From Patescibacteria group bacterium (GTDB lineage: Bacteria; Patescibacteriota; Patescibacteriia; 2-01-FULL-39-33), in contig JBAZMW010000004.1 of NCBI GenBank assembly GCA_041649575.1, forward strand, positions 21,687 through 85,686: a stretch of 64,000 nt of DNA, read 5' to 3'. Made by a program: the position numbers and the translations under genes. Numbering within the stretch: position 1 is the first letter of the stretch; each line of letters begins with the position of its first letter. The notes below the pieces were generated by a model. The model made no database searches. It was not told where the DNA came from and was given only the letters and a program-made list of their open reading frames with translations. Shown here piece by piece: positions 2,076 to 63,625 of the stretch.

Positions 2076-4730
2076 CTATTTCAAACTCTGCAAATTATCT
2101 TTTAATTTTAACACTTTTTCCTGGGCCATGGCCAGTTTTTCCTTTTCCCCGTCTACCACTATTTTAGGAGCGTGGCTAATAAACTCCTGGCCAGCCAACT
2201 TAACCTCTAAATTTTTTATATATTTTTCTAACTCGCCAATCTCCTTATTTAAACGCTCTTGTTCTGCTACCCTATTAATTGTAACCGATAAATCCAAATA
2301 TATCTGTGCCTGGTTGGTTACGGCACCAAGACTACTAGCTGGCTTCTGGCTGATGTTGTCGGTGACAGTCAAAGATTCTAGACGAGCCAGACGCTTGATA
2401 ATAACCGCTTGCGACTCGAGCAATTCTTTTTGCCCACTGATAATTACCGCTTTCAATAATTTAGCTGGCTCAATTTTGTTTTCACTGCGTAAATTTCTAA
2501 TGGAAGTGATGATCTGTTTTATTAATTCAAAATCTTTATTCTTGGCCGGCCCGGCTTTAACCGCGGGCCAAGTTTCGACCATCAATAAACCGCTGTCAAA
2601 ATTATGCCAAAGCTCTTCGGTAATAAAGGGGCAGAAAGGATGCCAGAGCCGCAAAATATTTTGCAAGACATAAAGCAGAATTTCATCCTTATCACCCTCG
2701 ATTTTGGCAATCTCCAAATACCAATCGGCAAAACAATCCCAGGTAAATTCCTGCAGTTTTTCCGCAGCTAAAGAAAACTCATATTTATCCATCAAATGCT
2801 CAATTAAATGAGTTGTCGCCTCCAGTTCTTGCAAAATCCAATGGTCGGACAAGGTCTGGGCGGTTGGCTTGGCCGTAATTATTTTAATGTCATCGACTGA
2901 CTGCAAAATAAACCGAGAAATATTCCAAAGCTTATTAATAAAATTCCTGGCGCCAGCCACTTTCTCCTCGAAAAATCTCATATCATTACCCGGGGTCGTG
3001 CCTTTAAGTAAGCTAAGCCGCAGGGCATCGGTGCCGTATTTTTCTATAATCTCCAACGGGTCCAGCCCATTACCGGCCGATTTAGAAAACTTTTTGCCAT
3101 TTTTGTCACGTAACATGCCATGAATATAGACCTCCTTGAATGGGATATCGTCTAAAGCATAGGCGGACAAGAGAATCATCCGCGCCATCCAAAAAAATAA
3201 AATTTCATAACCCATCTGCATCCAGGAGGTAGGGTGAAATTTTTTTAGGTCCGCTGTCTGGTCGGGCCAGCCAAGGGTCGAGAAAGTCCAGGCGCCAGAG
3301 GAAAACCAGGTATCTAGGGTATCTTCGTCTTGTCTGATATTTTTACTCTGACATTTTGGACATTTTAACGGACTACCTTCGCTAAAAAATATTTCTTGGC
3401 AATCATCACAATACCAAACTGGTAAACGATGGCCCCACCAAATCTGACGTGAAATACACCAATCACGCAAATTATCAATCCAATGCAAATAAATACTTTG
3501 AAATCGGTTAGGTGTAATTTTGATAATTTTATCCTGATCGCCGCTGTGGCCCGTAGTAACCGCTTCACGCATTAAATCTTTCAAGCTCTGGTCGCGGCCA
3601 GTAATTTTTTTATTAACATCAACAAACCACTGATCCATCGGCAGGGCTTCGACAACATCTTTGAAACGATCGGAGGTACCGACGTTATGTTCGATTTCTT
3701 CTTCACCAACATAAAGGCCATTATCTTTAAGCCAGTTAACAAATTTATCCCGCGCCTCCAAAACCGTTAAACCCTCATAACCCGGACCAGCGGCCTTAAG
3801 CATCCGGCCATCACGGCCAATGACCGGTGTAATACCGATATCTTTGTTATTCTGATACATTTCAAAATCGATCTGGCTGTGAGCCGGTGTCACACCCACG
3901 GCGCCAGTGCCATAATTCATGTCAACATTCTTATCGCCAATGACAGTGATTGTCAGCGGCCGCTCGGCACCGACATCGACTGTGAATTTCTGGCCAATAA
4001 ATTTTTGGTATTTCCCATCATCGGGATGAACCGCTACCGCAGTGTCCCCCAGCTTGGTTTCTGGACGAGTGGTGGCAATGGTAATGGGAAAATCCTTGGA
4101 ATATCTAAAAGTATAGACCCTCGTCTTTTTTGTTTCATAAACCAGCTCGTCATCGGAACAAGTGCTTTGTCCCTTGACCGACCAGTTGACCACCCGATAA
4201 CCGCGATAAATCAAGCCATCATCAAACATCATCTTAAAAAGCTTATTAACAGCAGCCGACCTCTTATCGTCAAAAGTATAGGCCAAACGCGACCAGTCGC
4301 AAGAAGTGCCCATTTTTTTGATTTGACCAATGATGATGCTTTTGTGATTCTCTGCGAATTCGCGAATTCGCTTCAACAGTTCTTCACGTCCTAACTCTTG
4401 ACGCGGATTGGTAATGCCCTGTTTTTTCAGCTCGTCTTCGACCCTGGCTTGAGTGGCCACGGCGGCATGATCCGTGCCGGGAACTATTAAGGCGCGTTTG
4501 CCTTTCATCCGCTGATAACGAATCTCGATATCCATTAGAGAATTTTCAAAAGCGTGACCCAAGTGTAAAATACCCGTGACGTTGGGCGGCGGCATGGAAA
4601 TAACAAAAACCTCGGGACGATCACCCGGCAATTTGTCAGGATCAAAAAAACCGGAAGCTTCCCATTTTTGATAAATCTGGTCTTCGACTGTTGCGGCTTC
4701 GTAAGTTTTAGGTAATTCGATTTTGGCCAT
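2076..4730 (-). CDS. valS: valyl-tRNA synthetase
   Basis: 884 aa with PPPNVTGILHLGH (HIGH motif), KFSKSAGN (KMSKS motif), an editing domain and a C-terminal coiled coil. Confidence 0.9.
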   Translation of the reverse strand: MAKIELPKTYEAATVEDQIYQKWEASGFFDPDKLPGDRPEVFVISMPPPNVTGILHLGHAFENSLMDIEIRYQRMKGKRALIVPGTDHAAVATQARVEDELKKQGITNPRQELGREELLKRIREFAENHKSIIIGQIKKMGTSCDWSRLAYTFDDKRSAAVNKLFKMMFDDGLIYRGYRVVNWSVKGQSTCSDDELVYETKKTRVYTFRYSKDFPITIATTRPETKLGDTAVAVHPDDGKYQKFIGQKFTVDVGAERPLTITVIGDKNVDMNYGTGAVGVTPAHSQIDFEMYQNNKDIGITPVIGRDGRMLKAAGPGYEGLTVLEARDKFVNWLKDNGLYVGEEEIEHNVGTSDRFKDVVEALPMDQWFVDVNKKITGRDQSLKDLMREAVTTGHSGDQDKIIKITPNRFQSIYLHWIDNLRDWCISRQIWWGHRLPVWYCDDCQEIFFSEGSPLKCPKCQSKNIRQDEDTLDTWFSSGAWTFSTLGWPDQTADLKKFHPTSWMQMGYEILFFWMARMILLSAYALDDIPFKEVYIHGMLRDKNGKKFSKSAGNGLDPLEIIEKYGTDALRLSLLKGTTPGNDMRFFEEKVAGARNFINKLWNISRFILQSVDDIKIITAKPTAQTLSDHWILQELEATTHLIEHLMDKYEFSLAAEKLQEFTWDCFADWYLEIAKIEGDKDEILLYVLQNILRLWHPFCPFITEELWHNFDSGLLMVETWPAVKAGPAKNKDFELIKQIITSIRNLRSENKIEPAKLLKAVIISGQKELLESQAVIIKRLARLESLTVTDNISQKPASSLGAVTNQAQIYLDLSVTINRVAEQERLNKEIGELEKYIKNLEVKLAGQEFISHAPKIVVDGEKEKLAMAQEKVLKLKDNLQSLK

Positions 4731-4874
4731 GGAGATAAAGCTTTTGGAATGGTTTTATTTTACTTAATTTAACTTAATTTTTCAAGTTTTAAAAGCCCTG
4801 TCCGGCGTTTATTGACAATAAATGAAAATTTGGCTAAGATTAAATATTCAGTTAAATTATTATCCAAAACACTT

Positions 4875-6011
4875 ATGGCTCTTTCGGAGCTCCAGCAGAC
4901 GCAGGAACTGATCAGAAAAAACAAATCAATACTGATAATCTTCAAAAAAGACTGGTCGGGCGATGCCGCAGCCAGCTCCTTGGCTTTGGCGGAAACCCTA
5001 AGAAAACTGGATAAAGCGGTGGAAATCGTCTGTCAGGATTTTAAGCCGACAACCAGCCTTAATTTTTTGCCGTTGTCACAAATTAAAAACAGCCTGATCA
5101 ATCTGCAAAAATTTATCATCAGTATTAACACTTCGCAAACCCAGGTGGGTGAATTTTATTATGACCACCAGGAAAACCGCCTGAACATCTACTTAACGCC
5201 GCAGAACGGCCAACTGGAAGCCAAGGACGTCACCACTGCCATTTCCGATTATAAATATGATCTAATTTTTATCATTAATTCTCCGGACCTGGCTTCTTTA
5301 GGCGAGGCCTATGAAAGGCAGCCGGATTTCTTCTTCAATACTCCTAAAATAAATCTGGATCATTCCAACCGCAACGAATATTTTGGCGACGTCAATTTGG
5401 TCAATATCACTTCGGCCGCCAGCGCTGAAATAGCCTACGAGCTGATAAAAAGTCTGGGCGACAAGCTGATTGACGATAATATTGCCACCTATCTATTGGC
5501 GGGAATTATTTTTTCTACCAAAAATTTCAAAGTTTCCAATCTCACTCCCAAAACCTTAAGCATTGCCAGCTTGCTGGTACACTATGGGGCGCGGCGAGAA
5601 CAAATCATCCAAGCCATTTACCAAAATAAATTTTTATCGACCCTGAAGCTCTGGGGCCGAGTTTTATCAAGACTCAACAACGACTTAGACGATCGCCTGG
5701 TGTGGTCGAGCTTGTCGGTTCAGGACTTTCTGGAGACTGCCACTACGCCCGAGGAGATTTTAGACGTGGTGGAAGAGCTGATTGTCTCCATGCCCAAAAC
5801 GGATGTGGTGGTGCTCTTGCACGAGGGCCGGGACATAAACAAAAAAGAGGTCTGCTGTTTGGTTTACGCTGTCAAAAACGGCAATGCCCTCTTTCTTAGT
5901 AAAAGATTCGAGCCCAGCGGTAACAGTGAGATTGCTAAATTCTCTTTAAACAACCTTTCCTTGGCCGAAGCCGAGAGGCTGGTAATCGGTGAGATAAAAA
6001 GCAAGCTGTAA
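4875..6011 (+). CDS. DHH/DHHA1-like phosphoesterase family protein (divergent NrnA paralog; start uncertain, TTG at 4812 possible)
   Basis: Architecture resembles NrnA at 18157..19107, but the D-x-D, DHH and GGGH motifs are degenerate (DWSGDAAASSLAL, LDHSN). Confidence 0.45.
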   Translation: MALSELQQTQELIRKNKSILIIFKKDWSGDAAASSLALAETLRKLDKAVEIVCQDFKPTTSLNFLPLSQIKNSLINLQKFIISINTSQTQVGEFYYDHQENRLNIYLTPQNGQLEAKDVTTAISDYKYDLIFIINSPDLASLGEAYERQPDFFFNTPKINLDHSNRNEYFGDVNLVNITSAASAEIAYELIKSLGDKLIDDNIATYLLAGIIFSTKNFKVSNLTPKTLSIASLLVHYGARREQIIQAIYQNKFLSTLKLWGRVLSRLNNDLDDRLVWSSLSVQDFLETATTPEEILDVVEELIVSMPKTDVVVLLHEGRDINKKEVCCLVYAVKNGNALFLSKRFEPSGNSEIAKFSLNNLSLAEAERLVIGEIKSKL

Positions 6012-7265: not shown

Positions 7266-7294
7266 TTGACTTTTTTATAAATTTTACGTAAAAT
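7266..7294 (+). promoter_or_regulatory. sigma70-type promoter (TTGACT-17-TAAAAT)
   Basis: TTGACTtttttataaattttacgTAAAAT lies just upstream of the small GC-rich gene. Confidence 0.55.
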
Positions 7295-7336
7295 AAACAA
7301 ACCATTGTCTCTAAACATGGCACAAGGAGAATGGAG

Positions 7337-7579
7337 ATGGAATTTGTTCCTTTCTATATCGACACCGACACCACTAATACCGGAGTTAGAGATTCTGAGC
7401 AATGGGCCCGAGTCGAGGCTGAGGAAAAGAGACTCCTGCCCAACGCCAGGTTATCGGTTACACAGGAGATACGTGGGTTACCAACTTTCGGCTTCGACAA
7501 CTGGAGAGGCTATACGGGGGAAACGCTCGGGGAGTGGGCGCGTAGGAGGGGAATGGACCTTTTCCCCGACCGATTCTAG
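7337..7579 (+). CDS. orphan small protein (80 aa), GC-rich relative to flanks; alternative start at 7331
   Basis: AAGGAG RBS 8 nt upstream of ATG; own promoter and terminator; about 52% GC against roughly 35% in the flanks; no recognisable domain. Confidence 0.45.
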   Translation: MEFVPFYIDTDTTNTGVRDSEQWARVEAEEKRLLPNARLSVTQEIRGLPTFGFDNWRGYTGETLGEWARRRGMDLFPDRF

Positions 7580-7601
7580 AAAGTCAATGACCTTTGATTC
7601 T

Positions 7602-7642
7602 GCCGTGACCGTGCACTTAGCGGTCACGGCGGTTGCTTTTAT
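7602..7642 (+). terminator. intrinsic terminator
   Basis: GCCGTGACCG-tgcacttag-CGGTCACGGC followed by GGTTGCTTTTAT. Confidence 0.65.
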
Positions 7643-7732
7643 GACAAAAAACTTTATCATAAAACAATCAAATTTAAAATAAAAAATTGGGAATTTAAAG
7701 GCTTTTTATGTTAGAATAAAGATAATAGTTGT

Positions 7733-9331
7733 ATGAAAATTAGCGTAGAAAAAAAATTACGAAACTGGCAACTAGAGGCGCTGAAATCGCCCGAGTTTGC
7801 TTTTGTGGAAAAGTTGACAAAAAAATTCCCCGAGGCGAAAGTTTACTTGGTGGGCGGTGCCGTCAGAGACCTGATTCTAGAGCGTGATACTAAGGATTTT
7901 GATTTTGTGGTGGCCAAAGTGCCGGCCAAGGATTTGGAAAAATTCCTTAGCTCTTTGGGCAAGGTCAATCTGGTTGGCAAAAGTTTTGGAGTATTTAAGT
8001 TTGTACCTAATAACGTCATCCCGAGCGAAGCCAGGGGAGAAGTGTGGGGATCCCGCGGGATTGCCACGTCGTCCGGTTCCGTTACGCGGAACCGGTCTCC
8101 TCGCAATGACATTATTTTTGAACCCTTCGATATCGCTCTGCCGCGCACCGAGCATGCGGGCATGAGCGGCGGCTACAGGGATTTCGAAGTGCAAAGCGAC
8201 CAAGACTTGCCAATCGAGGAAGATTTGTCACGCCGCGATTTTACTATTAATGCCCTGGCCTGGGACTTGAGAGAGAAAAAAATAATTGACGAGTTTGACG
8301 GACTAAAAGATTTGGAAAATAAAACTATCAAAGCGATTGGCAAACCGGAACAGAGATTCCAGGAGGATTATACCCGCCTGCTGCGCGCTATCAGGCTCTG
8401 CTGCCAACTGGATTTTATGATCGAGGCCCACACCCTGAAAACCATTCACGACAAAGCTCAAAAAATCGGCACCATTGCCAAAGAAAGAATTAATGAAGAG
8501 CTAGTCAAAATTGTCATGTCGAACAAAGCCGAGGACGGTTTTCGATTACTGCAAAAAATCGGGCTTTTAAAAATATTAATTCCAGAACTGGAGTCGACGG
8601 TTAACATCAGCCAGAATAAACATCATATTTACGACATTTTTGAACATAGCGTACGGGCGCTGGGAGCAGGCGCTCAAAGGAATTATTCGCTTTGGGTGCG
8701 GCTGGCGGCGCTACTGCATGACATTGGCAAGCCGCAAACAAAAGAGGGCGAAGGCCCCGACTCAACTTTTTACAACCACGACATCGTTGGAGCCAAAATC
8801 GCCAAAAATATTTTAAAACGACTAGATTTTTCCAATGAGACTATTAGCAAGGTGACGCATTTAGTGCGTTATCATATGTTTTATTATGCCCTGGATACGG
8901 TGAGCGACGCCGGAGTAAGGCGACTACTAGCGCGACTGGGCAAAGAAAATATTCAAGATTTCATTGATGTCAGAATCTGCGACCGGTTGGGCATGGGCCG
9001 GCCTAAGGCCAAACCCTGGAAGCTGATTGAGCTGGAACGCCGACTCAAGGAAGTGCAGCTCGATCCCATTACTCCCAAGATGCTCAAAATCAATGGCGAT
9101 GAGCTGATGAAAATTTTGAAAATCAAGCCGGGACCGCGAGTGGGCCTGATACTTAATGCCCTGCTGGGCGAGGTTTTGGAAGATCCCGAGAAAAACGATA
9201 AAAAATATTTGACCAAAAAAATGAAAGAGTTGGATAAATCGAAAGACGAAGAATTAAAAAAACTAAATCCGGATGTAAAATTTTACGAAGAAGAAAGGAA
9301 GAGGTTGCTACATTTCAATAAAGACAACTAA
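7733..9331 (+). CDS. cca: CCA-adding tRNA nucleotidyltransferase / poly(A) polymerase family with HD domain
   Basis: GGAVRD and RRDFTINA head motifs; HD domain (LLHDIGK); 532 aa; contains an in-frame 96-bp repeat insertion. Confidence 0.8.
   Translation: MKISVEKKLRNWQLEALKSPEFAFVEKLTKKFPEAKVYLVGGAVRDLILERDTKDFDFVVAKVPAKDLEKFLSSLGKVNLVGKSFGVFKFVPNNVIPSEARGEVWGSRGIATSSGSVTRNRSPRNDIIFEPFDIALPRTEHAGMSGGYRDFEVQSDQDLPIEEDLSRRDFTINALAWDLREKKIIDEFDGLKDLENKTIKAIGKPEQRFQEDYTRLLRAIRLCCQLDFMIEAHTLKTIHDKAQKIGTIAKERINEELVKIVMSNKAEDGFRLLQKIGLLKILIPELESTVNISQNKHHIYDIFEHSVRALGAGAQRNYSLWVRLAALLHDIGKPQTKEGEGPDSTFYNHDIVGAKIAKNILKRLDFSNETISKVTHLVRYHMFYYALDTVSDAGVRRLLARLGKENIQDFIDVRICDRLGMGRPKAKPWKLIELERRLKEVQLDPITPKMLKINGDELMKILKIKPGPRVGLILNALLGEVLEDPEKNDKKYLTKKMKELDKSKDEELKKLNPDVKFYEEERKRLLHFNKDN
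8035..8130 (+). mobile_element. MITE-like palindromic element inserted in frame in cca (32 codons)
   Basis: 5' GTCATCCCGAG and 3' CTCGCAATGAC terminal inverted repeats; internal 9-bp hairpin CCGGTTCCG/CGGAACCGG; about 62% GC; the 3' half recurs at 35581-35624 and 44431-44466. Confidence 0.65.
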
Positions 9332-21679: not shown

Positions 21680-22789
21680 CTACGCCAGGTTGATGTTGAT
21701 CTCGGCTCGTCCCAAAGCGGCCAAGGCCAGACCCAGAACGGTAGCAGCGGCATACGGCCGTTCCAAGAACACTGTGGAGCCGGAACTCATGCCGGCGAGC
21801 GGGTCAACCAGACGCACCTCCCTGCCAAACGCCCGCTGGAAGTACAGCGCGATGTTGCGTAAGCGCACGCCACCGCCTGTCAACAGGAACCGGTCCACCT
21901 CGCCGCCACCAGGCAACGAGCGGAAGTAAGCCAAGGAATCTTTGACTTCCGTGACCAGCCGGCTAAGCACCGGGCCGGTCGCTTCGCCCATCTTACCATC
22001 GCTGCTGACATCGCTGGTTGGAACGAAGCCTTGCTCGAGCTTCATGGCTTCCGCCTCCAAGAAAGGCACACCGAAAGCATTGCCGATCGCCGCGGTAACG
22101 TCGTTGCCGGCTAGGTGCAGCGGCCGCGTATAAGCGAATTGACCGCCCCTCTCTATTACCAGGTTGGTCGTGTTGGCGCCCAGGTCGAGCACGGCGACGC
22201 ACTCATCCGCGTGTCCCAATTCGCCGATATGCCTCAACCAGTCATAGAGCGCCACCGACGCGGGGATGCAGGCTATCGGATTGACCAGTTCTAGAGGCAA
22301 AGGCGCCAGGTGAGCATTCAGCGCATCTCGCTTGATAGCGGCCATCATAACCTGGTATCCCTTTTCCTTGGCGTCCGCCCCGCAGAGGAGCCCGCTCGTG
22401 TCCGTTGTGGGAAAAAGGTGATATCCCAGGCGAATCTGGTCGAGCTTGAATGGTATCTGTTGCTGAAGTTCATACCGCACGATCTTGTCGATTCTCTTCC
22501 TTGGAATCGGTGGCAGGAACCTGGTCCGAGTGAAAACCGAGCGGCCTGGCACTCCAACCACTGCTGGCTGACGCCAGAAGTGAAGACGATTGCCAATGCC
22601 CATTTCAGCCAGTAGTTCTTCCAGCGCCTGCCGCTTCTTGGCCCGCTTGTCGGCTTCATCGGCCAAGGGATCAAGTAGGTACTCCTTGAGGCCGAAACGA
22701 GACAGCCGCAGCATGGTGCCGGCACCACGCTCTAGTTCGCACACACGAACCTCGCTGGTACCGATGTCAACAGCAATCCTTCTAAACAT
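21680..22789 (-). CDS. pilM: type IV pilus assembly protein PilM (actin-like ATPase), orphan and GC-rich (about 58%)
   Basis: VDIGTSEVR N-terminus; PilM-like blocks (VGVPGRSVFTR ... IPFKLDQIRLGY ... VLDLGANTTNL ... LTGGG). Confidence 0.65.
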   Translation of the reverse strand: MFRRIAVDIGTSEVRVCELERGAGTMLRLSRFGLKEYLLDPLADEADKRAKKRQALEELLAEMGIGNRLHFWRQPAVVGVPGRSVFTRTRFLPPIPRKRIDKIVRYELQQQIPFKLDQIRLGYHLFPTTDTSGLLCGADAKEKGYQVMMAAIKRDALNAHLAPLPLELVNPIACIPASVALYDWLRHIGELGHADECVAVLDLGANTTNLVIERGGQFAYTRPLHLAGNDVTAAIGNAFGVPFLEAEAMKLEQGFVPTSDVSSDGKMGEATGPVLSRLVTEVKDSLAYFRSLPGGGEVDRFLLTGGGVRLRNIALYFQRAFGREVRLVDPLAGMSSGSTVFLERPYAAATVLGLALAALGRAEININLA

Positions 22790-25841: not shown

Positions 25842-26234
25842 TCAGAAAGGTACTGGCTGGCACCTGGATTGTTCCAGGCCTTCTTTTAAGGCGCTGGCCA
25901 GTTCATCTCTACTACCCCAATAGCAGACCGCATCCAGCCCATTTGGCTCTGTCAATGGAGCACGAGTCACCCCAATTAAGAACGGCCTGGGCCGACAACG
26001 CCGAAAATGTTTGACAACTTCTTCCGCGCCAGGATGTTGAAAGTCGACTATCAGGATTTGCGGCCGCATTACGCCTTGTAATTCCTTGCTGTTGACGACA
26101 CTGGTGATGGTGACCTGGGGATTGCTTCCATACCAATTAACACCAAGATCGTCAATGGCCCAGTCTTTGGCGCCTCGCCAGAGCTCCAAAGCCGATTGGG
26201 TATTGACGGCCAAAAAGGTTACCAGTGTGGGCAT
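25842..26234 (-). CDS. hypothetical protein (130 aa), GC-rich, own promoter; weak paralog of the next gene
   Basis: RBS GGGAGG; promoter TTGTCA-17-TAATAA; palindrome TTAACCAAGCGGTTAA between the -10 and the RBS; shares an ILIVDF/ILFIDF block with 26378..26893. Confidence 0.45.
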   Translation of the reverse strand: MPTLVTFLAVNTQSALELWRGAKDWAIDDLGVNWYGSNPQVTITSVVNSKELQGVMRPQILIVDFQHPGAEEVVKHFRRCRPRPFLIGVTRAPLTEPNGLDAVCYWGSRDELASALKEGLEQSRCQPVPF

Positions 26235-26377
26235 GGTTAGATCCTCCCTTAAAGAACAGCTCGACCAAATTAACCGCTTGGTTAATTATTAACATGCCAT
26301 AAAAAATTTGACAAGAAAAAGCCGTGCGCGAGGCAACGGCTCAAATCGCTCCCAATCTGTCGGAAGGGAGCGGCGTA

Positions 26378-26893
26378 CTAGAAGGGAATAATGTCGCTGA
26401 TGGCGTCTTCCAATCCTTGACTGGTCCTGGCGCAGAGGTCGAATTCCTCACAAACCATCGGGTCGTTGGGATAATGATCGTGATAAGGAACGACTACAAT
26501 ATGGAGCGCCGGGTTGTTGCGCAAGAAAGGCGGCAACGCCTCATCGGCCTCTGTGTGATCGTTACAAATCACGACGATGAACGGTTCGAACTCGACTAAG
26601 CGCCAAAGCTGCGAGTCACGTATGTCAGCAAACATGACCCTAAAATCGCCGTAACGATAACGACGGGTGCCAAGCCACAGCTCTTTCATCTGCGTCGGCT
26701 CAAAATCGATGAACAGAATGCGTGTGCCGTTTCCTTCAAGCACCTCGACTTCGTACTCCATTGACTCAACTGGTGGCGGGATCAAACGCTCCTGCGGCGG
26801 TGGCGCTACTGGTTCCTCCTCCCGAGTCTCCAGCCAATCCAAAAAGTCTGCGCCACATTCTGCCAGGGTTGCCGGCGCCGTTGACATGGCCAT
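26378..26893 (-). CDS. hypothetical protein (171 aa), GC-rich
   Basis: AAGGAG RBS 8 nt upstream of ATG; lies downstream of the 16S terminator; no recognisable domain. Confidence 0.45.
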   Translation of the reverse strand: MAMSTAPATLAECGADFLDWLETREEEPVAPPPQERLIPPPVESMEYEVEVLEGNGTRILFIDFEPTQMKELWLGTRRYRYGDFRVMFADIRDSQLWRLVEFEPFIVVICNDHTEADEALPPFLRNNPALHIVVVPYHDHYPNDPMVCEEFDLCARTSQGLEDAISDIIPF

Positions 26894-31288: not shown

Positions 31289-32251
31289 CTACCCGAGGCA
31301 GAACACCGACGCCGAATAGTCGTCGCTGGCATACGACAGATAGTCGGTGTAGTCGAAGTTCGCATAGGAATCGTAGGCGAGGAAGCGGAGCGAGTAGGAC
31401 TGCCACTGAAGAGCCGGGCAGCGCACTATTGGTGTCTTGGCGTCTCGGCAGAGCTCCTTGGCATAGGCCATGTAAGCCACTGCCGTGTCCAAGCCGCCGC
31501 CCAAGAGCATCCATTCGGGAATCTGGGCGGACAGTTCATGCCCGACGAAGGTCTCGCGACAAGCGTCGACGCTGTAACCGCCGAAAGGCAGAAGCGTGAC
31601 GCCGACAACCGGTTCTTTGGCCAAGGCGGCGAGCAGACACTCGTGCCGACTGCCGGCTACGATGCTGACCTCGCCGGCCAAGTCGGTTTCACGGTAGTTC
31701 GTGAACTTCCTGCCCTCGGCCTCGAAGGCTTCCTCATAAGCGCTCCTCACCCCGTCGACAAAAAGCTTCAAGGTGGCGCCGTAGCCACCTTTGTCCTCCG
31801 GCAGAATCGTGCCCGCTGGCAGAACAGTCGGCAGCCAAATGCCTTTGACGGCATTGGCCGTGCGAGGATCGCCCGCCAGCCTGGTGATAGTGGCCTTGGC
31901 TCGTACTTCGAATTCCTCGGCCGACGGCAAGCTGAGCGCCTCGGCTTTGACTCGCAGTCCGATGGCCAGATGCCGACGGACGCGCTCGAGGATCTCGCCG
32001 TAGTTGATCGAGGGTTGGTTGACGTAATACGCGCCAGCGTCGCAGAACGCAGCTTTGAGTCCGGGAAACGGAATGAAGCGGCTGTTCTTGTCGAACAGCT
32101 TACGGACGGTCTCCTTGATCTCCGCGGTCATTTCGTGACGCAGCAGCGCCTTGACGACATTGACGCCGCCAAGCTGGTTGCCAAGCGCCACCCAGTGGGT
32201 ATGTGGCAGGTCGTCCAGTGTTTCCAGTTGATCAATGTTAAAGTCCTTCAT
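31289..32251 (-). CDS. hypothetical protein D (320 aa) of GC-rich island
   Basis: RBS AAAGGAG; strong promoter TTGACA-17-TATAAT at 32363..32335; about 60% GC; no recognisable domain. Confidence 0.5.
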   Translation of the reverse strand: MKDFNIDQLETLDDLPHTHWVALGNQLGGVNVVKALLRHEMTAEIKETVRKLFDKNSRFIPFPGLKAAFCDAGAYYVNQPSINYGEILERVRRHLAIGLRVKAEALSLPSAEEFEVRAKATITRLAGDPRTANAVKGIWLPTVLPAGTILPEDKGGYGATLKLFVDGVRSAYEEAFEAEGRKFTNYRETDLAGEVSIVAGSRHECLLAALAKEPVVGVTLLPFGGYSVDACRETFVGHELSAQIPEWMLLGGGLDTAVAYMAYAKELCRDAKTPIVRCPALQWQSYSLRFLAYDSYANFDYTDYLSYASDDYSASVFCLG

Positions 32252-32334
32252 CTTGCGCTCCTTTCAGCCCATGGCCGAAATGGCTTTTCCCCTACCCGAG
32301 GATTGGGAACAGTCCTACGCAGGACCATCAGACT

Positions 32335-32363
32335 ATTATACTAAATAAAAAATAATCTGTCAA
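32335..32363 (-). promoter_or_regulatory. consensus sigma70 promoter (TTGACA-17-TATAAT) on minus strand
   Basis: Minus strand: TTGACAgattattttttatttagTATAAT in the AT-rich spacer upstream of gene D. Confidence 0.6.
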
Positions 32364-32520
32364 TACTAACAAATTATTTAAAGTTAAATAAAAACTTCCT
32401 CATCTGTCCGGCCAAGCTTCTTGAATGAGATAGAAACTATCTCAAACAAGAAGAAGAGAGAGTTTGGCCGGACGAATGAAGAAGCTTTAAAAGTATTCCT
32501 CAAAACTTGTAAAAAAGATT

Positions 32521-32569
32521 TGCAAGTTTAGTTGGAAGGAGAAGCTGACAAACCACATCAGCTTCTCCC
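32521..32569. repeat. island repeat, short copy 3
   Basis: TGCAAGTTTAGTTGGAAGGAGAAGCTGA-caaaccaca-TCAGCTTCTCC: 11-bp perfect hairpin plus the CCAGTTGGAAGGAG-like core. Confidence 0.6.
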
Positions 32570-32593
32570 AAAACCATCTACCGATCAAGGCCG

Positions 32594-33451
32594 CTAGGCC
32601 TTGGCGATGACGGCGCGAGTTGCCTCAACCGCCGCCACGACGTCGGCCAGCATCATGCGCTGACCGCGGGGACTGCCGGCGATGCCCGCGTGCCCGCCGG
32701 CCGCCTCGCCCCAAAGCCCCTGCACGATCTCTCGTGCCGAGACTCCGGGGATCGGGTCGGCGATAGACACTGTCACCGCACCGGTGACTGTGTTGAAGGC
32801 GACAACAGCTTTCGCCAAGTCGCCTTCCGGGTCGACGTACAGATGGCTGACAAACGTGTCCGCCACCCGCACTGCCACCCCGCCGCCAGCCTCGACGAAC
32901 GATTGCGCATTCAGCGCGACCTCCGCCGAGCGGAACGCCTCGCCCGCCGCGAGAAGTTCCGGGTCGTCAGCGCAAATGCGCTCAACGACCCTGACGGCCT
33001 CCATCACCTGCTCGGTGACTTCGGCCGCGCTGCCGTCGCGCGGGGGCAGGCAGCGGTGACCGTTGCTCCACGCCCAGAAAGCGTAGAGCCGGACGATGTC
33101 GGCTGGCTCGGCGCCGGCTTGGCCTAGCTTGTGCGGACCGTTGAGGTCCACAAAAGCTGCCAGGAGCCAGAATCCCGGCGTCTCGGGCTTGCGACCGAGA
33201 ACGGCCGCACAGCCGCCGACGGAATCGAGATCAAGGTGGGAAAGTCCCACCGCCTCGACTTCACCAGCCGCGCCGTTGTCGGCGAGGCAGGGGGCGGGGT
33301 TGCCCGCCCGCGGCCCGTGATGGGCCAGGGTTGCGACGGACCCGGCGACACACTCGTCGCCGAATTCCGCCTCAACCGAAGCGGTCAGGCCGAAGGGGGC
33401 GAGGACGGCGGCCAATGCGGCCGCATGGTTTGAAATAAAAAACTTCGTCAT
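32594..33451 (-). CDS. hypothetical protein C (285 aa), about 68% GC; faint DHH/DHHA1-like motifs (HLDLDSVGG ... AAGGHAGIAGSP)
   Basis: RBS AGGAGA 7 nt upstream of ATG; longest frame in the region; the motif resemblance is weak and unverified. Confidence 0.45.
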   Translation of the reverse strand: MTKFFISNHAAALAAVLAPFGLTASVEAEFGDECVAGSVATLAHHGPRAGNPAPCLADNGAAGEVEAVGLSHLDLDSVGGCAAVLGRKPETPGFWLLAAFVDLNGPHKLGQAGAEPADIVRLYAFWAWSNGHRCLPPRDGSAAEVTEQVMEAVRVVERICADDPELLAAGEAFRSAEVALNAQSFVEAGGGVAVRVADTFVSHLYVDPEGDLAKAVVAFNTVTGAVTVSIADPIPGVSAREIVQGLWGEAAGGHAGIAGSPRGQRMMLADVVAAVEATRAVIAKA

Positions 33452-33560
33452 GGCTTATCTCCTCTCTCGGAGTTTCAGCGCGCCACGCGCTGTGCCTCTC
33501 TCTGGTTTATCAAACCCTGCAAGCGAGAGACAAACTGGCAACTCCGCGCCGACAACCGGT

Positions 33561-33724
33561 GCAGAGTTTTTTCCTCAAGCCCCGCAAACTCACATTGTTT
33601 GCGAAGCCAGTTGGAAGGAGGAGACAGAAAAACCACTCTGACTCCTCCGGATAACCTTGTTTGCGTTTGTAACGAGGCCGCCGCCTCCGATTGTTTGACC
33701 TCTAACAATCGTAAAGGAGTGTTC
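33561..33724. repeat. island repeat, long copy 1 (164 nt, multi-hairpin)
   Basis: About 96% identical to 34422-34585; contains the TGCGAAGCCAGTTGGAAGGAGGAG core plus hairpins GGAGGAGACAGA/TCTGACTCCTCC, GCAAAC/GTTTGC and CGATTGTT/AACAATCG. Confidence 0.75.
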
Positions 33725-33762
33725 AGATTAAGGCCTAACACACAAGGTCTTTCTGGCGTGAC

Positions 33763-34333
33763 CTACTCGGACAGCGTGATGATCAGGTCTTTGACCTGAT
33801 CATCACGCTCAGACCAGACGGCGTTGGCTGGCTTCTGCCACCACCGCTTCTTCGGTGCGCCCCATTCGGCGGCGCATTCAGCGAAGTGGCTGCAATCCCC
33901 CCCCGAATCCGCGCAACAGAGCGCGTAATACGCGGCTAGCGCTCGGCGTTCGGCCGCGATACCAGAGGAGGAGCAGCAGAAGGCAGCGACGTCACCCGCT
34001 ACCTTTTTCGCCCGGGCGAGTTGCTCCGGAGAACTTACATTCTCCAGATAACCGCGGGCCCACTCTTCAACATCCGCGATGTCGCACATCGCGGCATGCT
34101 GCGCTACGATCCTTCTGGAAACGCGCACAGCCCACTTATTCGCTAGCTCCTTGGCTAGCGAATAAGAGGCGAGGCAAATGATTTCGTAGCTTGAAAATTT
34201 CCACGAAATCAGAGCATCCACGTCCTCCCTCCTAAACTCATTGCCCGCCCCATACCAGCGGCGGGCCACTTCTCTTTCGCATTTAGGAAAGCTCCTGAGA
34301 GCTTCCCTCAGGGTTCTGTACCTTTTCAAGTTC
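33763..34333 (-). CDS. hypothetical protein B (190 aa) of GC-rich island
   Basis: RBS GGAAAGGAGAGAGAG-ATG; the longer upstream frame is an artefact of running into repeat copy 2. Confidence 0.5.
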
Positions 34334-34421
34334 ATCTCTCTCTCCTTTCCGGATGTGGCCGAGATGTGGCCGGTCCCCTCGGAAACTACCATATATCCAA
34401 AACTCCGCACCGACCATCGGC

Positions 34422-34585
34422 GCAGAGTTTTTTCCTCAGGCCCCGCAAACTCACATTGTTTGCGAAGCCAGTTGGAAGGAGGAGACAGAAAAACCACTCT
34501 GACTCCTCCAAATAACCTTGTTTGCGTTTGTAATGAGGCCGCCGCCTCCGACTGTTTGACCTCTAACAATCGTAAAGGAGTGTTC
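34422..34585. repeat. island repeat, long copy 2
   Basis: Near-identical to 33561-33724. Confidence 0.75.
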
Positions 34586-34717
34586 TAATTAAGCTCTTGC
34601 GAGCCGGCCTAACACACAAGGCCGTTTGCCCATGATTTTACGCGGATGGCTTCTGCCCTTGACACGGGCCAAGGACTTTACCGCAACCGCCGAAGCGGGC
34701 TGTGAGGACGCCGAAGG

Positions 34718-35206
34718 TTACTTGGCTTTCGGCATCCCCGGCAGCTCCTGGAGCTGTCGGATGAAGGGGCCGACGATGTCGGCCACCTCCGAACGGAAGC
34801 ACGTTTGTGCTTCCATCGCGCACTCGCAGTCACCAACGGCGATTGCGAATGGAGGAAGGGGAAGTTCCACCGCCTCTTCCGGCAGTGAAACTTCCACCTG
34901 CAGAGGATATTCTCCCCCACAAATGTCTTCTGCCAATACCTGAATATGATCCAGGTAACCGCCCACGCTCACGTAGCGGCGAAACTCCGCCGCCACACTC
35001 GACACGCCCACCGAATATGAAACGGCGAACGTGCCCGACCGGGAGGATAGGCTAACCTCCATCCCGGCCTTCGTAAGAATGACGTACCCGCCATCATTAC
35101 GACCCACCTTCCACCCCGCTGCTACTGCAGCGGAGATGGGAATATTCCCTTCCCGCGGCCAGTTCGACCGCAGAAAAGACTTAACCCCTTCAGAATAGAA
35201 ACTCAT
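34718..35206 (-). CDS. hypothetical protein A (162 aa) of GC-rich island
   Basis: RBS AAAGGAGATAAGTT-ATG; no recognisable domain. Confidence 0.5.
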   Translation of the reverse strand: MSFYSEGVKSFLRSNWPREGNIPISAAVAAGWKVGRNDGGYVILTKAGMEVSLSSRSGTFAVSYSVGVSSVAAEFRRYVSVGGYLDHIQVLAEDICGGEYPLQVEVSLPEEAVELPLPPFAIAVGDCECAMEAQTCFRSEVADIVGPFIRQLQELPGMPKAK

Positions 35207-35547: not shown

Positions 35548-35624
35548 GTAGCCCGAAGCGCCTTGTTTCTTATAACTCGGGATTGCCGCGGTCGCCCGCC
35601 TCTGGCGGACTCCCTCGCAATGAC
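35548..35624. mobile_element. intergenic copy of the MITE-like element (degenerate 5' end)
   Basis: CGGGATTGCCGCGGTCGCCCGCCTCTGGCGGACTCCCTCGCAATGACA matches the 3' halves of the cca and polA copies. Confidence 0.6.
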
Positions 35625-42395: not shown

Positions 42396-43235
42396 ATGGC
42401 AATATCCGCCAACAATGGCGCCAACTCAATGCCAGCGCCGCTACTAGAAAGGCAGGAAGCGGTACTTAAGTTCTTTCCCAACAGAAAGCCGTCATCCAGA
42501 CTTGATAGCAGCCCGTCTATCTCTGGACACGAAGGCATCGTGGTCTTTCCTGACAAGGAGCTTGGGCGAGCGATCGCTTCACAATGCTTGGTTGGCAAGA
42601 GTCTGCAGATCATGCTACAAGTCTACAAAACCGCAAGAGGGACCCACGTCTGGACCGCCAGCAAACACCCCCGAAAGAATCTGGTACTTCAAACCGCCGA
42701 CCTTGGCGGAAAAGAAGTGGCGGTCATCATCGACGGGCAAAACCTGCTGGGGTCCATGAGACGACTCGGGCTGAAGTCAATGGTTGACACTATTAGCAGG
42801 GTTCTGCGACCATTCAGGCCGAAGCTTATCAATCTTTACCTGGGAGCCAACGACCTTATACAACTACTTCCCGCTGACAGGACAGCACTCCATTCCGGCG
42901 CAAGGATTGGTGAAACGCAGTTGACACTCTTCACTGTGGAGACTCGGCGCGTGGCCGACGATAACGGTACCAGAATGAAGAACAATATCGACGGCAGTAT
43001 ACTGCCGATCCTGGGAGAGCTGACAAACGACAGATCTTGCGAAGGCCTAATACTCTTTACGGGCGACAAGGATTTCAGCACCGGCGTGGAGCTTTGGATG
43101 GGTATTGGCGAACAATCACACCGCCCGGGCAGACCGGCCATTGTGGTCTCGGCCGATCCCATGCTTAGCACCGAACTGCGAGAGGCCATGAACCACCCCA
43201 GAGGGAACCTGATCTTTTTGGAAGACCTGTGTTGA
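42396..43235 (+). CDS. NYN/LabA-like PIN-domain protein
   Basis: VAVIIDGQNL and ILFTGDKDF blocks typical of NYN domains; RBS GGAGGAGGG; about 54% GC. Confidence 0.55.
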   Translation: MAISANNGANSMPAPLLERQEAVLKFFPNRKPSSRLDSSPSISGHEGIVVFPDKELGRAIASQCLVGKSLQIMLQVYKTARGTHVWTASKHPRKNLVLQTADLGGKEVAVIIDGQNLLGSMRRLGLKSMVDTISRVLRPFRPKLINLYLGANDLIQLLPADRTALHSGARIGETQLTLFTVETRRVADDNGTRMKNNIDGSILPILGELTNDRSCEGLILFTGDKDFSTGVELWMGIGEQSHRPGRPAIVVSADPMLSTELREAMNHPRGNLIFLEDLC

Positions 43236-43401: not shown

Positions 43402-46302
43402 ATGACAAACAAAAAACAGAGGCTGGTTATCGTTGACAGCAATGCTCTGATTCATCGCGCTTTCCATGCCTTGCCACCACTCTCCAACAAAGAAGGCCAA
43501 TTGACCAATGCGGTCTATGGCTTCACTATGATTTTAATCAAAGCCATCAAAGACTTAAAACCAGATTATTTGGCTGCCTGCTTTGATTTAAAAGGCAAAA
43601 CTTTCCGCCACGAGGCCTATGATCAATACAAGGCCACCAGGATAAAACAGCCCGACGAACTCTACCAGCAAATTCCCATCGTCAAAGAGGTTTTAGAGGC
43701 TTTCAAAATTCCTGTTTTCGAAAAAGAGGGGCTGGAAGCCGACGATTTAATCGGCACCATCGCTCACTTAAAATCTGTTGACCGTCCGGACATCGAAACC
43801 ATTATCGTCACCGGCGACCAAGACACTCTGCAGCTTGTCGACTATAATACCAAGGTGCTAACGCCGCATAAAGGCATGAGCGAAACCATCCTTTATGGCG
43901 AGGATGAGGTAAAAGGAAAATTCGGCGGCCTGGAGCCCAAACAACTAATTGATTATAAAGGGCTACGTGGCGACGCCTCTGATAACATTCCAGGAGTCAG
44001 GGGTATTGGTGAAAAAGGAGCCATTGAACTTTTGCGAGAGTTTGGCAGCGTGGAGAATGTTTACAAAAACATTAAATCCAAAAAAATTAAAGAACGAACG
44101 CGCGAGCTGCTTTTGGCCAACAAAGACACGGCGCTATTATCGAAAAGGCTGGCGACCATAGTTTTGGACGCTCCGATAAAATTCGAATTGGAAAACTGCC
44201 GCTTTAGCGGCTTTGATAAAAATGCCGTGGTAGATATTTTTCAAAAATTAAACTTCAAACGACTACTGGCGCAACTAGCCACACTTTTAAAAAATGACCC
44301 TGCGACAACAATAGGGCAAGGAAATTTATTTTCCCAGATGTCATTCCGAGGAGTCCAGTCATTACACCGACTAGACGACGTTGGCCTGCCTGCCGGCAAG
44401 GCAGGGATCCCGTCTAATATTGAAAAAGATGGGATTGCCGCGGTCGCTCCGCTCCCTCGCAATGACAATAAAAAAATCGGCCGGCAAAATTATCAGTTGG
44501 TTGATGAGGAAAAAACCGCCAAAAAATTCTTAACTGAACTGAAAAGGCAGCGCGAGTTTTGTTTTGATACCGAAACCACCGGACTGGATCCTTTTCAGAA
44601 CAAACTACTGGGAATCAGTTTTTGTTGGCAGGAAGGCGAGGCTAGTTATTTGACAGTCAGGATTATTAAAAACAATCTTAAAGAGCTAAAAAAAATATTT
44701 GAGAACAAAAATGTAAAAAAAATCGGCCATAATCTAAAATATGATATTGAGATTTTGGAAAAAAGCGGCCTAAAGACCAATAGGCTTCACTTCGACACCA
44801 TGATCGCTTCCTATGTTTTGAACCCCGGCGGCCGCCAGCATAATTTAGACACGCTGGCTTTCGTTGAACTGGGATACCAAATGCAACCGATAGAGGAGTT
44901 GATCGGCAAGGGACGAGGCCAAATATCCATGGCCGAAGTGCCAATAGACAAAGTTTGTTGGTATTCTTGCGAAGATGCCGATCTGACTTTTAGACTGTAC
45001 CAGAAACTGAAGCAAGAGCTGGGTGAGCAAGGCACGGAGGGCCTGTTGGAAAACCTGGAAATGCCGCTGGTGGAGGTTTTGGCGACAATAGAAACTAACG
45101 GCGTTAAAATTAATGACAAAATTTTAAAAAAATTAAGTGATGATTTCGCCAAAAAAATTTCTGCCATAGAAAAAAATACCTGGAAGCTAGTTGGAGAAAA
45201 ATTCAATTTGGCCTCGCCGTTACAATTAAAACAAATACTGTTTAAAAAACTAAAAATTGACGGGGCTGGGCTGGCTAAAACAAAAACTGGCATTTCCACC
45301 GGCGCGGCAGAACTGGAAAAACTGGCTGCTTGGTTCAGAGAAAACAAGGCGGACGAAAAAAAACTCAAGGTTATAAATTTACTTCTTGAATTTCGCGAGT
45401 TATCAAAATTGAAATCAACTTATCTGGACGCCTTGCCGGCTCTAATAAATAAGGTTGACGGCCGGGTCCATACCAGCTTTAACCAAACCGTGACAGCCAC
45501 CGGTCGCCTATCGTCCAGCGAGCCAAACCTGCAAAATATTCCTATTCGCACAGAAACTGGCGGACCAATAAGACGCGCTTTCATCGCCGAGCGGGGCTAC
45601 AAAATAATGAAAGCCGACTATTCGCAAATCGAATTGCGTATTGTCGCCTCACTGGCCAATGACAAAAAAATGTTAAAAATTTTTGAGAGCGGCGGCGACA
45701 TTCATACCAGCACCGCGGCTTTTATCCACGGCATCAAACCCGAAGAGGTGACCAAAGAAATCAGGCGTACCGCCAAGGAAGTTAATTTTGGTGTCCTCTA
45801 TGGCATGGGTGCCTGGGGGCTCTCGCAACGCACCGGCATTTCCAACACGGAAGCGCAAAAATTTATCAGCAAATACTTTTCTACTTTTAAAGAAGTGAAA
45901 AAATGGCTGGATGAAACCATTGAGCTTGCCAAAGAACGCGGCTACGTGGAAACGCTTTACGGCCGCCGGCGCTACTTACCGGAAATCAATTCGGGCGTCA
46001 GCCAGGTACGCAGCGGCGCCGAACGCATGGCGGTCAACATGCCCATTCAGGGCACAGCCGCCGACTTAATAAAACTAGCGATGATCAAAATTCATAAAAA
46101 TTTGCCCCATATCAGCCCTAAAGCCAAAATAATCCTGCAGGTGCATGACGAGTTGGTTTTTGAGGTGCCGGAAAAAGACATTAAAAAAGTGGCAAAGTTT
46201 GTCAGGGAAAAAATGAGCTCGGTCATTAGGTTGCGCGCTCCGATTGAAGTAGAGGTCTCCGCCGGCGACAATTGGGGTGAGACCCGGGAAATAAATTTAT
46301 GA
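43402..46302 (+). CDS. polA: DNA polymerase I
   Basis: 5'-3' exo (LVIVDSNALIHRAFHA), 3'-5' exo and pol motifs A/B/C (DYSQIELRI, KEVNFGVLYG, QVHDELVFE); in-frame repeat insertion in the exo-exo linker. Confidence 0.9.
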   Translation: MTNKKQRLVIVDSNALIHRAFHALPPLSNKEGQLTNAVYGFTMILIKAIKDLKPDYLAACFDLKGKTFRHEAYDQYKATRIKQPDELYQQIPIVKEVLEAFKIPVFEKEGLEADDLIGTIAHLKSVDRPDIETIIVTGDQDTLQLVDYNTKVLTPHKGMSETILYGEDEVKGKFGGLEPKQLIDYKGLRGDASDNIPGVRGIGEKGAIELLREFGSVENVYKNIKSKKIKERTRELLLANKDTALLSKRLATIVLDAPIKFELENCRFSGFDKNAVVDIFQKLNFKRLLAQLATLLKNDPATTIGQGNLFSQMSFRGVQSLHRLDDVGLPAGKAGIPSNIEKDGIAAVAPLPRNDNKKIGRQNYQLVDEEKTAKKFLTELKRQREFCFDTETTGLDPFQNKLLGISFCWQEGEASYLTVRIIKNNLKELKKIFENKNVKKIGHNLKYDIEILEKSGLKTNRLHFDTMIASYVLNPGGRQHNLDTLAFVELGYQMQPIEELIGKGRGQISMAEVPIDKVCWYSCEDADLTFRLYQKLKQELGEQGTEGLLENLEMPLVEVLATIETNGVKINDKILKKLSDDFAKKISAIEKNTWKLVGEKFNLASPLQLKQILFKKLKIDGAGLAKTKTGISTGAAELEKLAAWFRENKADEKKLKVINLLLEFRELSKLKSTYLDALPALINKVDGRVHTSFNQTVTATGRLSSSEPNLQNIPIRTETGGPIRRAFIAERGYKIMKADYSQIELRIVASLANDKKMLKIFESGGDIHTSTAAFIHGIKPEEVTKEIRRTAKEVNFGVLYGMGAWGLSQRTGISNTEAQKFISKYFSTFKEVKKWLDETIELAKERGYVETLYGRRRYLPEINSGVSQVRSGAERMAVNMPIQGTAADLIKLAMIKIHKNLPHISPKAKIILQVHDELVFEVPEKDIKKVAKFVREKMSSVIRLRAPIEVEVSAGDNWGETREINL
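44340..44466 (+). mobile_element. MITE-like element inserted in frame in polA linker (effective about 126 bp)
   Basis: TIRs GTCATTCCGAGG ... CCCTCGCAATGACA; internal hairpin CCTGCCT/AGGCAGG; 3' half GGGATTGCCGCGGTCGCTCCGCTCCCTCGCAATGACA shared with the cca and intergenic copies. Confidence 0.65.
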
Positions 46303-62921: not shown

Positions 62922-63037
62922 AGTCAGCGGCGTTTTTTGGCTATTGACATTTTGGGTTATTTTTGGAATAATGGAGCGTTACCCTGGAGGTAATGAACAT
63001 TGGTCAACAAATCCCCTTTTCGGGGTATGGGAGAGCG

Positions 63038-63625
63038 ATGATGAACAGGAACAGGCAAGCGGTATTTCTGGTGATTTTGGCGGTTGCGGCGGCTGGGTGT
63101 TCGACGACGGTCAGTCCCAACGGCTATCGTAGGGACTTTCTGACTTTCGGCGGCGAGCGGTATCAGAAGTACCAAGACCCGCGGCTGGAGGCGAATTCCG
63201 GAGTCGTGGCTTACAGTGGCATTAACGGCCCAAGCGGTCCATACGCGGCCGCGTTGGCAGTCGGCAGTATCTCCGACCCGGCGGCGCGGCGTGATGCGGC
63301 CGAGACCATAAAGAGCGTGGCCGAGAATGAAGGAGCCTATGGCGGCGGACGAGCGGCCGGTGGCTACCGCGGCTATCACGGCGGGTTTAGACAGTTGGGC
63401 TATCTGCTCAACAACAGCAACGAAACGCGTTTTGTCAGTGTTGACGGCAGCCGGCCGATCGAGGTGCTGCCTTGGCGCAAGTTGTTTCTGGAGCTGCTGC
63501 CCGGCGACCACCAGCTGGTGGTGACAAGCCGGAGCGGCGCTTTCATCAAGGAACGGTCTTTCGTCGTGAATGAGGAAAGGCGCGATGCGCCCGATCACCT
63601 CCACGATTGGATGCAGAACATTTAG
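63038..63625 (+). CDS. putative lipoprotein, GC-rich (about 60%)
   Basis: Promoter TTGACA-17-AATAAT at 62945-62975; signal peptide with lipobox VAAAGC; opposite-strand ORF 62957..63652 judged spurious. Confidence 0.5.
   Translation: MMNRNRQAVFLVILAVAAAGCSTTVSPNGYRRDFLTFGGERYQKYQDPRLEANSGVVAYSGINGPSGPYAAALAVGSISDPAARRDAAETIKSVAENEGAYGGGRAAGGYRGYHGGFRQLGYLLNNSNETRFVSVDGSRPIEVLPWRKLFLELLPGDHQLVVTSRSGAFIKERSFVVNEERRDAPDHLHDWMQNI

Follow-up and report, generated by a model that had tools for sequence, protein, structure and literature searches.

We analysed a 64,000-nt stretch of DNA (the window; position 1 is its first letter) from contig JBAZMW010000004.1 of the Patescibacteria genome assembly GCA_041649575.1, in which cca, the gene for the CCA-adding enzyme, carries a GC-rich palindromic repeat within its reading frame. 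Related copies lie in polA and in an intergenic region. The features concerned are as follows, with units described as like those of repetitive extragenic palindromic (REP) sequences and the evidence in brackets.

7733..9331, plus strand: cca, host gene, class II CCA-adding enzyme with HD domain, 532 aa (open reading frame; PF01743, PF12627, PF01966, PF13735)
8015..8110, plus strand: element in cca, a dimer of two inverted REP-like units, 32 in-frame codons (sequence, GC, fold, orthologue comparison, profile, AlphaFold2 model)
8015..8055, plus strand: unit A, (C)GTC tag, ATCCC...GGGAT basal stem around GAGCGAAGCC..., CCCG tail (read from sequence)
8056..8110, minus strand: unit B, (T)GTC tag, ATTGC...GCAAT basal stem, CCCG tail, holding the hairpin at 8073-8095 (sequence, fold)
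35565..35624 (approximate), plus strand: solo 3' unit GGGATTGCCGCGGTCGCC...CTCCCTCGCAATGAC in a 1.1-kb intergenic region (profile, E = 8.8e-6)
43402..46302, plus strand: polA, second host gene, DNA polymerase I, 966 aa (open reading frame, domains)
44340..44466, plus strand: full 127-bp copy of the same subfamily in polA, both termini present, GTCATTCCGAGGAG...CTCCCTCGCAATGAC (sequence, profile, fold z = -3.2)

The insert in cca spans 8015-8110, that is, 96 bp or 32 codons in phase 0 of the 7733-9331 open reading frame (ORF), and is read as VIPSEARGEVWGSRGIATSSGSVTRNRSPRND, residues 95-126 of Cca. An earlier note on this DNA had placed the element at 8035-8130; the sequence features it described are all present, but its coordinates lay 20 bp too far to the right. 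The element has 64.6% GC compared to 44.3% in the rest of cca and 44.6% in the window, so that the contrast first given as ~62% in ~40% stands with other figures. Its ends, GTCATCCCGAG and CTCGCAATGAC, are complementary at 9 of 11 positions, and a perfect 9-bp hairpin, CCGGTTCCG-TTACG-CGGAACCGG, lies inside it at 8073-8095. These results agree with the imperfect terminal inverted repeats and 9-bp hairpin that the note had reported, as well as with its count of exactly 32 codons added to the Cca head domain without breaking the frame. Folded as single-stranded DNA, the element reaches -22.8 kcal/mol (z = -2.6 vs. shuffles). The copy is a chimeric dimer with no spacer, in which an ATCCC/GGGAT arm (unit A) adjoins an ATTGC/GCAAT arm (unit B). 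The tag is CGTC at 8014-8017 and TGTC on the other cca arm and at both ends of the polA copy, and the tails of the window copies are CCCG. We conclude that the cca segment represents a non-autonomous palindromic repeat, somewhat decayed in this copy and built from two REP-like stem-loop units in inverted orientation, and we hold this identity, and its insertion into cca, with high confidence.

The Cca protein of the window has a 100% identical counterpart in an NCBI Patescibacteria metagenome-assembled genome (MAG). Its nearest orthologues (74-79% identity, 498 aa) have no insert in either protein or DNA, reading FKFVPAKATNIEP where the window has FKFVPNN-(32 aa)-IIFEP, and over a longer alignment FKFVPAKATNIEPIDIALPRTE where it has FKFVPNN-(32 aa)-IIFEPFDIALPRTE. 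Of 109 Cca orthologues, about 90 have a loop of 9-14 aa at this place, and 12 have one of at least 20 aa. In an AlphaFold2 model built with 117 sequences (mean predicted local distance difference test score, pLDDT, 87.6), the insert sits between strands 87-92 and 132-135, and residues 103-126 form the sole internal low-confidence stretch (pLDDT <50), the remainder being confident. Relatives in the PDB align from residue ~146 onward only, which gives no placement of the loop on an experimental structure. As modelled, the copy is shown to have landed in the tip of a beta-hairpin of the head domain, in a loop predicted to be disordered. Both the absence of the segment from close orthologues and its modelled loop position are in line with the insertion proposed earlier.

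The cca gene stays open with its catalytic motifs intact. Its reading frame remains open because the element has a length that is a multiple of three and is stop-free in frame, as it is in four of the six frames. The columns that are invariant among 117 orthologues are all retained in the window Cca, and for this reason the gene looks functional. Translation of the 32 residues is probable and would yield a disordered loop on the protein surface, tolerated but of no use to the enzyme. Taken jointly, the identity and insertion of the element and its translation as a tolerated loop appear very probable. An intron or intein was also considered for the segment and rejected, as 96 bp is too short for either and no Rfam or Pfam signal was found.

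The same repeat occurs elsewhere in the window. At most one mismatch allowed, CTCGCAATGAC is found five times, compared to 0.84 expected, and none of 100 shuffles reached five. A profile built from unrelated copies on phage contigs matched the window at exactly three sites, namely the 3' arm of the polA copy (E = 5.5e-7), the intergenic unit (E = 8.8e-6), and cca at 8049-8110 (E = 1.5e-4), with the polA 5' arm at E = 0.28. The same profile had no match in an orthologous contig without inserts from the candidate phyla radiation (CPR), L121. The claim that further copies exceed chance therefore held, with some changes of detail. What had been taken for a 3' half in polA (44431-44466) is a full 127-bp element at 44340-44466 with both termini. 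It occupies, in frame, the linker that joins the 5'-nuclease domain to the 3'-5' exonuclease-like domain, where it is read as SFRGVQSL...APLPRND. The intergenic copy, first placed at 35581-35624, is a solo unit extending over ~35565-35624. It may be the remnant of a dimer, and its region has no significant fold (z = 0.41). Tentatively, the window copies are probably immobile relics.

To follow the family beyond the window, contigs in IMG/VR and GTDB (one genome per species) were searched with the pattern GTCATTSCGAG-N60-90-CTCGSAATGAC, which samples interiors of 60-90 nt and under-samples the 127-bp length class of the polA copy. At least 120 loci were found in IMG/VR viral contigs and at least 120 in GTDB genomes. 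Hosts among the matches listed include the cultured Bradyrhizobium, Mucilaginibacter, Pedobacter, Flavobacterium, and Novosphingobium, together with Brocadiaceae, Acidobacteriota, Chloroflexota, Oscillospiraceae, Desulfobacterota, Legionellales, and Coxiellaceae, the group names Bacteroidota, Planctomycetota, and Firmicutes also being given. The same list holds the Rickettsiales member Ca. Tisiphia (33% GC) and four Patescibacteria genomes. Across genomes of 33% to 69% GC and phages, the 11-nt terminus and inner motif are unchanged. Copies on phage contigs adjoin or lie between portal, coat, and terminase genes, and a few plasmids carry the family as well. Judging from these sequence matches, the family is neither private to this genome nor specific to CPR. 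The earlier note had suggested an undescribed family, not expected in such a genome, and this did not survive the finding of the same termini and arm motifs at no fewer than 240 loci in phages and many phyla, Patescibacteria included.

Annotation resources had little to say about these copies. Rfam gave no family for the window, for the local region at a relaxed E-value, or for 14 loci with canonical copies. Translated copies had no match in Pfam or NCBIfam, and a genuine peptide of Rickettsia palindromic element (RPE) type RPE-4 was likewise unmatched in NCBIfam. Literature searches with the exact DNA termini and the peptide strings returned only primers and noise. Searches for papers linking RPE-type palindromic elements with Patescibacteria found none, and one for inverted-repeat transposable elements returned a single off-topic paper.

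A canonical copy reads GTC ATTGC GAG...GAA GCAAT CC(A)-variable centre-(T)GG ATTGC TTC...CTC GCAAT GAC, flanked by YY on the left and RR on the right. Of 124 copies, 68 have C and 52 have T at position -1, and 66 have G and 52 have A at position +1. Each unit consists of an unpaired YGTC tag, a 5-bp basal stem (A-T-T/C-S-C...G-S-R-A-T), a variable GC-rich interior that often contains GCGAAGC or a private hairpin, and a CCN tail. Elements of the family are small, measuring 82-127 bp, with arm-length modes at 25 and 31-33 nt and interiors of 10-40 nt. Pairing within arms is nearly without exception (424/426), ATTGC meeting GCAAT in 382/384 arms and ATTCC meeting GGAAT in 42/42, and it holds in 17 chimeric dimers with unlike arms. 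Each arm is its own independent stem-loop. Tails among the 426 arms are most often CCA (174), then CTC (120), CCC (32), and CCG (28). Unit B of the cca copy is the canonical arm type, and the type of unit A is also present in the cca insert of another Patescibacteria lineage (P0031) and in seven metagenome copies.

The search was built to find dimers, which therefore dominate the sample; solo units and arrays were found as well. On phage contigs, arms stand in tandem at 26- or 41-nt spacing (L104 691-893, L087 4627-4801, and L120 6510-6656), and these stacks point to the single arm, and not to the dimer, as the multiplying unit. The GCGAAGC motif is very frequent in arm interiors (e.g., L002, L010, and L185) and occurs in the window at 8025-8031; we take it to be the unusually stable d(GCGAAGC) DNA mini-hairpin.

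Both host genes carry inserts at the same places in other CPR lineages. In the cca of P0031, the site and frame used in the window hold an insert of the window subfamily, also 96 bp long but with different interior hairpins, and seven assembled contigs of another sample have a cca insert of near-identical architecture to that of the window. At the same Cca site, P0005 has a near-canonical dimer of one CGTC-1-like and one CGTC-3-like unit, types named after the CGTC-tagged REPs of Di Nocera, De Gregorio and Rocco (2013, BMC Genomics 14:522; PMC3733652). The interiors of the Cca insert peptides differ wholly between lineages. Seven further copies of the subfamily lie on metagenome contigs of 36-46% GC and are mostly intergenic.

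At the protein level, other unrelated repeat-like peptides occupy the Cca loop of P0008, P0034, and P0038 (...SFKTPLNLPLERGE...), and a second Cca site, at alignment columns ~268-283, is filled in P0031 and P0049 (...SAKGGPASG and SAKGACPPLGVRPAPG...). This suggests that several repeat families may have colonised CPR cca genes. The PolA linker of still other CPR lineages (P0128, P0133, P0140, P0160, and P0122) contains CGTC-type peptides (VIPAKAGIQ, VIPASSSVIPAKAGIQ, and VILSQSEGS), and PolA of P0138, P0160, and P0194 holds an intein (PF14890/PF14528). In another Patescibacteria genome (L139), a canonical copy, entered at 3703-3793, encodes the last ~35 residues (...SLRGSLATKQSPVSRNKSEIASLPSVARNDRQF) of a large membrane-protein ORF at 3691-5265 on the minus strand, while a second copy exactly fills the 110-bp gap between two glycosyltransferase genes. 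We rejected the 2.2-kb segment between these two copies as a candidate REPtron, as it holds a membrane protein and a glycosyltransferase but no transposase.

How such copies come to sit in frame in essential genes could be explained by selection. Copies landing out of frame or elsewhere in essential genes would be removed, and such removal would account for the recurrence of inserts in one permissive Cca loop and one PolA linker in several CPR lineages. We infer a filter for in-frame, stop-free copies at permissive sites, one that is not stringent, given that the cca copy is open in four of six frames and about half of all copies are stop-free in a given frame. Across the family, ~45-50% of copies are stop-free in any given frame and ~29% have a length divisible by three. 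In a census of phage contigs, 22% of copies vs. 52% of control segments lay in a frame that stayed open for 60 codons or more to both sides, figures to be read with the spurious ORFs of high-GC contigs in mind. Less can be said of how copies move. As a tentative proposal, which we hold possible but unlikely as a whole, a trans-acting enzyme might recognise the single-stranded hairpin units and insert them without target duplication. Candidates would be an HUH/Y1 enzyme similar to a REP-associated tyrosine transposase (RAYT) or some other structure-specific recombinase. Phage genomes might ferry the family between hosts.

Several observations weigh against this account of a repeat that hits at random and is then merely tolerated. 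In cca, three lineages have three different elements at the same codon position, to within one codon. In PolA, an element of the same subfamily lies at the same site and in the same frame in the window, P0138, and P0152, three lineages whose PolA proteins are 64-67% identical. Random hits plus tolerance fit this same-site occupancy less well than site preference or shared ancestry would. In addition, no mobilising enzyme was seen beside any copy examined, and as insertion boundaries 8015 and 8110 are approximate. The occupancy may reflect shared ancestry with precise losses, a preference for the site, or tolerance alone. Insertion directed to such sites by structure or sequence, through a widely shared enzyme and not through random hits filtered by tolerance, appears doubtful to us.

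The shared sites could also mean that the extra loop, or an mRNA hairpin, has become useful to Cca or PolA, for example, in partner binding or expression control. Recurrence at one PolA site and frame across such diverged proteins, the repeated occupation of the Cca position, and an inner 9-bp hairpin that is still perfect would all suit such an exaptation. Yet the closest Cca relatives do without any insert, the peptide interiors share nothing between lineages, and the segment is predicted to be disordered. Moreover, unrelated repeat families in the same loop of other orthologues point to a permissive site and not to a specific function. We therefore consider exaptation improbable, and a tolerated insertion remains our preferred reading of the cca copy.

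The small size (82-127 bp), multiple copies, terminal inverted repeats, and long hairpin of the elements recall a classical miniature inverted-repeat transposable element (MITE), that is, a deletion derivative of an insertion sequence (IS) ending in GTCATTSCGAG inverted repeats, which would depend on the DDE transposase of that IS for mobilisation in trans. Correia repeat enclosed elements (Correia/CREE), enterobacterial repetitive intergenic consensus (ERIC) sequences, Nezha, and QMITE1, bacterial MITEs with terminal repeats and target duplications, are of similar size and copy number, likewise end in inverted repeats, and now and then lie in frame within genes. In the family, the termini match at 9/11 positions in the cca copy, and the 11-nt match of canonical copies is imposed by the search pattern. 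However, direct repeats of 1-8 bp were no commoner around 124 copies than in permuted flanks, so that no target-site duplication is apparent, and the inverted symmetry of copies extends 1-2 nt into their flanks. No long-range terminus pair enclosing a transposase was found in the viral-contig loci checked, whole genomes not having been searched. Clustering of neighbouring genes returned phage structural genes only, with no gene family recurring beside copies. Within the part of the window that was scanned, none of 10 ORFs with atypical GC matched a transposase. Finally, arms that keep their own pairing in dimers of unlike arms are a property of REPs and not of terminal repeats. With no duplication, no parent IS seen in the loci checked, and autonomous arms, a MITE origin is unlikely, and the earlier label "MITE-like" fits only loosely.

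A further alternative is that the units serve mainly as landing sites for transposases of the IS110/IS1111 type or for phage integrases, as do dRS3 and the Coxiella REP. The small REP of Coxiella burnetii, QMITE2, is an 83-100-nt palindrome with a conserved stem and divergent tip, mostly found 3' of ORFs, and common to Coxiella and Bradyrhizobium/Rhodopseudomonas (Wachter et al. 2018, PMC5896051). It is reported as an IS1111 target, and the present family likewise occurs in Coxiellaceae and Bradyrhizobium loci. Still, the published description gives the Coxiella element a GTAG tag, and its identity with the family is a possibility at most. No IS110-like gene interrupts or adjoins any copy examined, and a role as target would leave the multiplication of the units themselves unexplained. 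We give this alternative little likelihood. The weakest possibility, that nothing was inserted and the segment is an ancestral lineage-specific loop or an assembly artefact, could appeal to the variable Cca loop length and the MAG source, but it is effectively refuted by DNA homology to a multi-phylum repeat, a GC content ~20 percentage points above the rest of the gene, the near-identical cca architecture assembled in seven contigs of another sample, and an intact frame and flanks.

Other features of the window may be noted. Just upstream of cca, 7290-7690 is GC-rich (~55%) with an RNA fold of z = -3.9 and no Rfam match; it includes an 82-aa ORF (7331-7579, plus strand) with AAGGAG ahead of it and, near 7600-7640, a terminator-like hairpin behind it. 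A block on the minus strand at 31289-35206 has four ORFs of 56-68% GC in a window of 44.6% GC, none with a Pfam match, and a 193-nt direct repeat (33540-33732 and 34401-34593, 94% identical). This block may be foreign DNA, and the solo repeat unit lies just beyond it. Further ORFs of atypical GC (52-59%) stand among housekeeping genes at 42396-43235 (plus strand), 21680-22789, 62957-63652, and 25842-26893 (all minus strand). The one directly upstream of polA encodes a protein with a weak NYN-domain match and another is PilM-like, the others having no Pfam match. A 30-nt AT-rich repeat at 14455, 23647, 25741, 32335, 36167, 46657, 47604, and 59320 (repeat families D2/D8) reads TTGACA-N17-TATAAT on the opposite strand, corresponding to near-consensus sigma-70 promoters and not to a mobile repeat.

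Selfish DNA in coding genes is a known kind of phenomenon, as in Rickettsia, and what is new here is the host clade and host gene. Selfish palindromes in housekeeping genes, known from Rickettsia and a few Proteobacteria, are now recorded in the reduced, ultra-small Patescibacteria as well, and a second new point is that one Cca loop and one PolA linker have been colonised repeatedly. For annotation, this means that where CPR proteins differ in length or show odd, low-complexity segments rich in GC, the cause can be a repeat insertion and not a lineage-specific domain. Peptides of the types VIARSEA..., SLRGA..., ...LAMT, and ...PRND in databases are translations of one DNA repeat. The question of what multiplies CGTC-type REPs also becomes sharper, the family being phage-borne and conserved in sequence regardless of host GC. 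Should insertion prove to be site-directed, such repeats would be a general source, not reported before, of expanded loops in essential proteins of CPR bacteria.

Among known systems, the REP and REPIN sequences of E. coli and Pseudomonas, which RAYT enzymes mobilise, share with the family short hairpin units with an unpaired tetranucleotide tag, inverted dimers with conserved arms and a variable centre, tandem clusters, a lack of target duplication, and a mostly intergenic location. By contrast, the tag here is YGTC and not GTAG, and no RAYT gene flanked by units was seen. The RPEs (RPE-1 to RPE-10; Ogata et al. 2000, 2002) resemble the family in behaviour, being in-frame palindromes that add a peptide segment to housekeeping genes at sites compatible with the fold, where the genes stay functional in a reduced genome; the Cca loop and PolA inter-domain linker are the corresponding sites here. 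Unlike RPE-1, which is ~150 bp and specific to Rickettsia, the family spans many phyla and is phage-borne. In-frame insertion of REPs and RPEs is established (PMC10969869, PMC3733652), and the analogy with RPEs drawn in the earlier note finds support in unit architecture, which fits the superfamily of CGTC-tagged REPs to which RPE-4 and RPE-6 belong.

As defined in PMC3733652, CGTC REPs have a CGTC/TGTC (or CCTC) tag, an AT-starting stem of 8-9 bp with a 4-5-nt loop, and a CCA tail; they form mostly dimers, occur in five phyla without a dedicated transposase, and never flank RAYT genes. CGTC-1 comprises Neisseria dRS3 and R. conorii RPE-6, and CGTC-4 is RPE-4. Intragenic CGTC dimers of 20-30 aa are known there in DNA repair and replication genes, tRNA enzymes, and one PolA (residues 338-367). 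The window family agrees with them in the C/TGTC tag, the A-T start of the stem, the CCA-type tail, and the prevalence of inverted dimers. It also agrees in the lack of an associated transposase, the mostly intergenic location with an in-frame intragenic minority, and the multi-phylum range that includes Bradyrhizobium, Micavibrio, sphingomonads, Bacteroidetes, and Rickettsiales. It differs in its 5-bp basal stem and 10-40-nt interior. Its sequence type (ATTGCGAG...GCAAT, with peptides VIARSEA/SLRGA/...LAMT/...PRND) is unlisted in the supplements of PMC3733652, where neither the ATTGCGAG string nor its peptides occur, and Patescibacteria and phages are not among the hosts given. Because the stem and loop dimensions of CGTC REPs are not shared, the family, as far as its sequence tells, is best filed as a relative or variant of the CGTC-tagged REP superfamily, distinct from CGTC-1 to CGTC-4.

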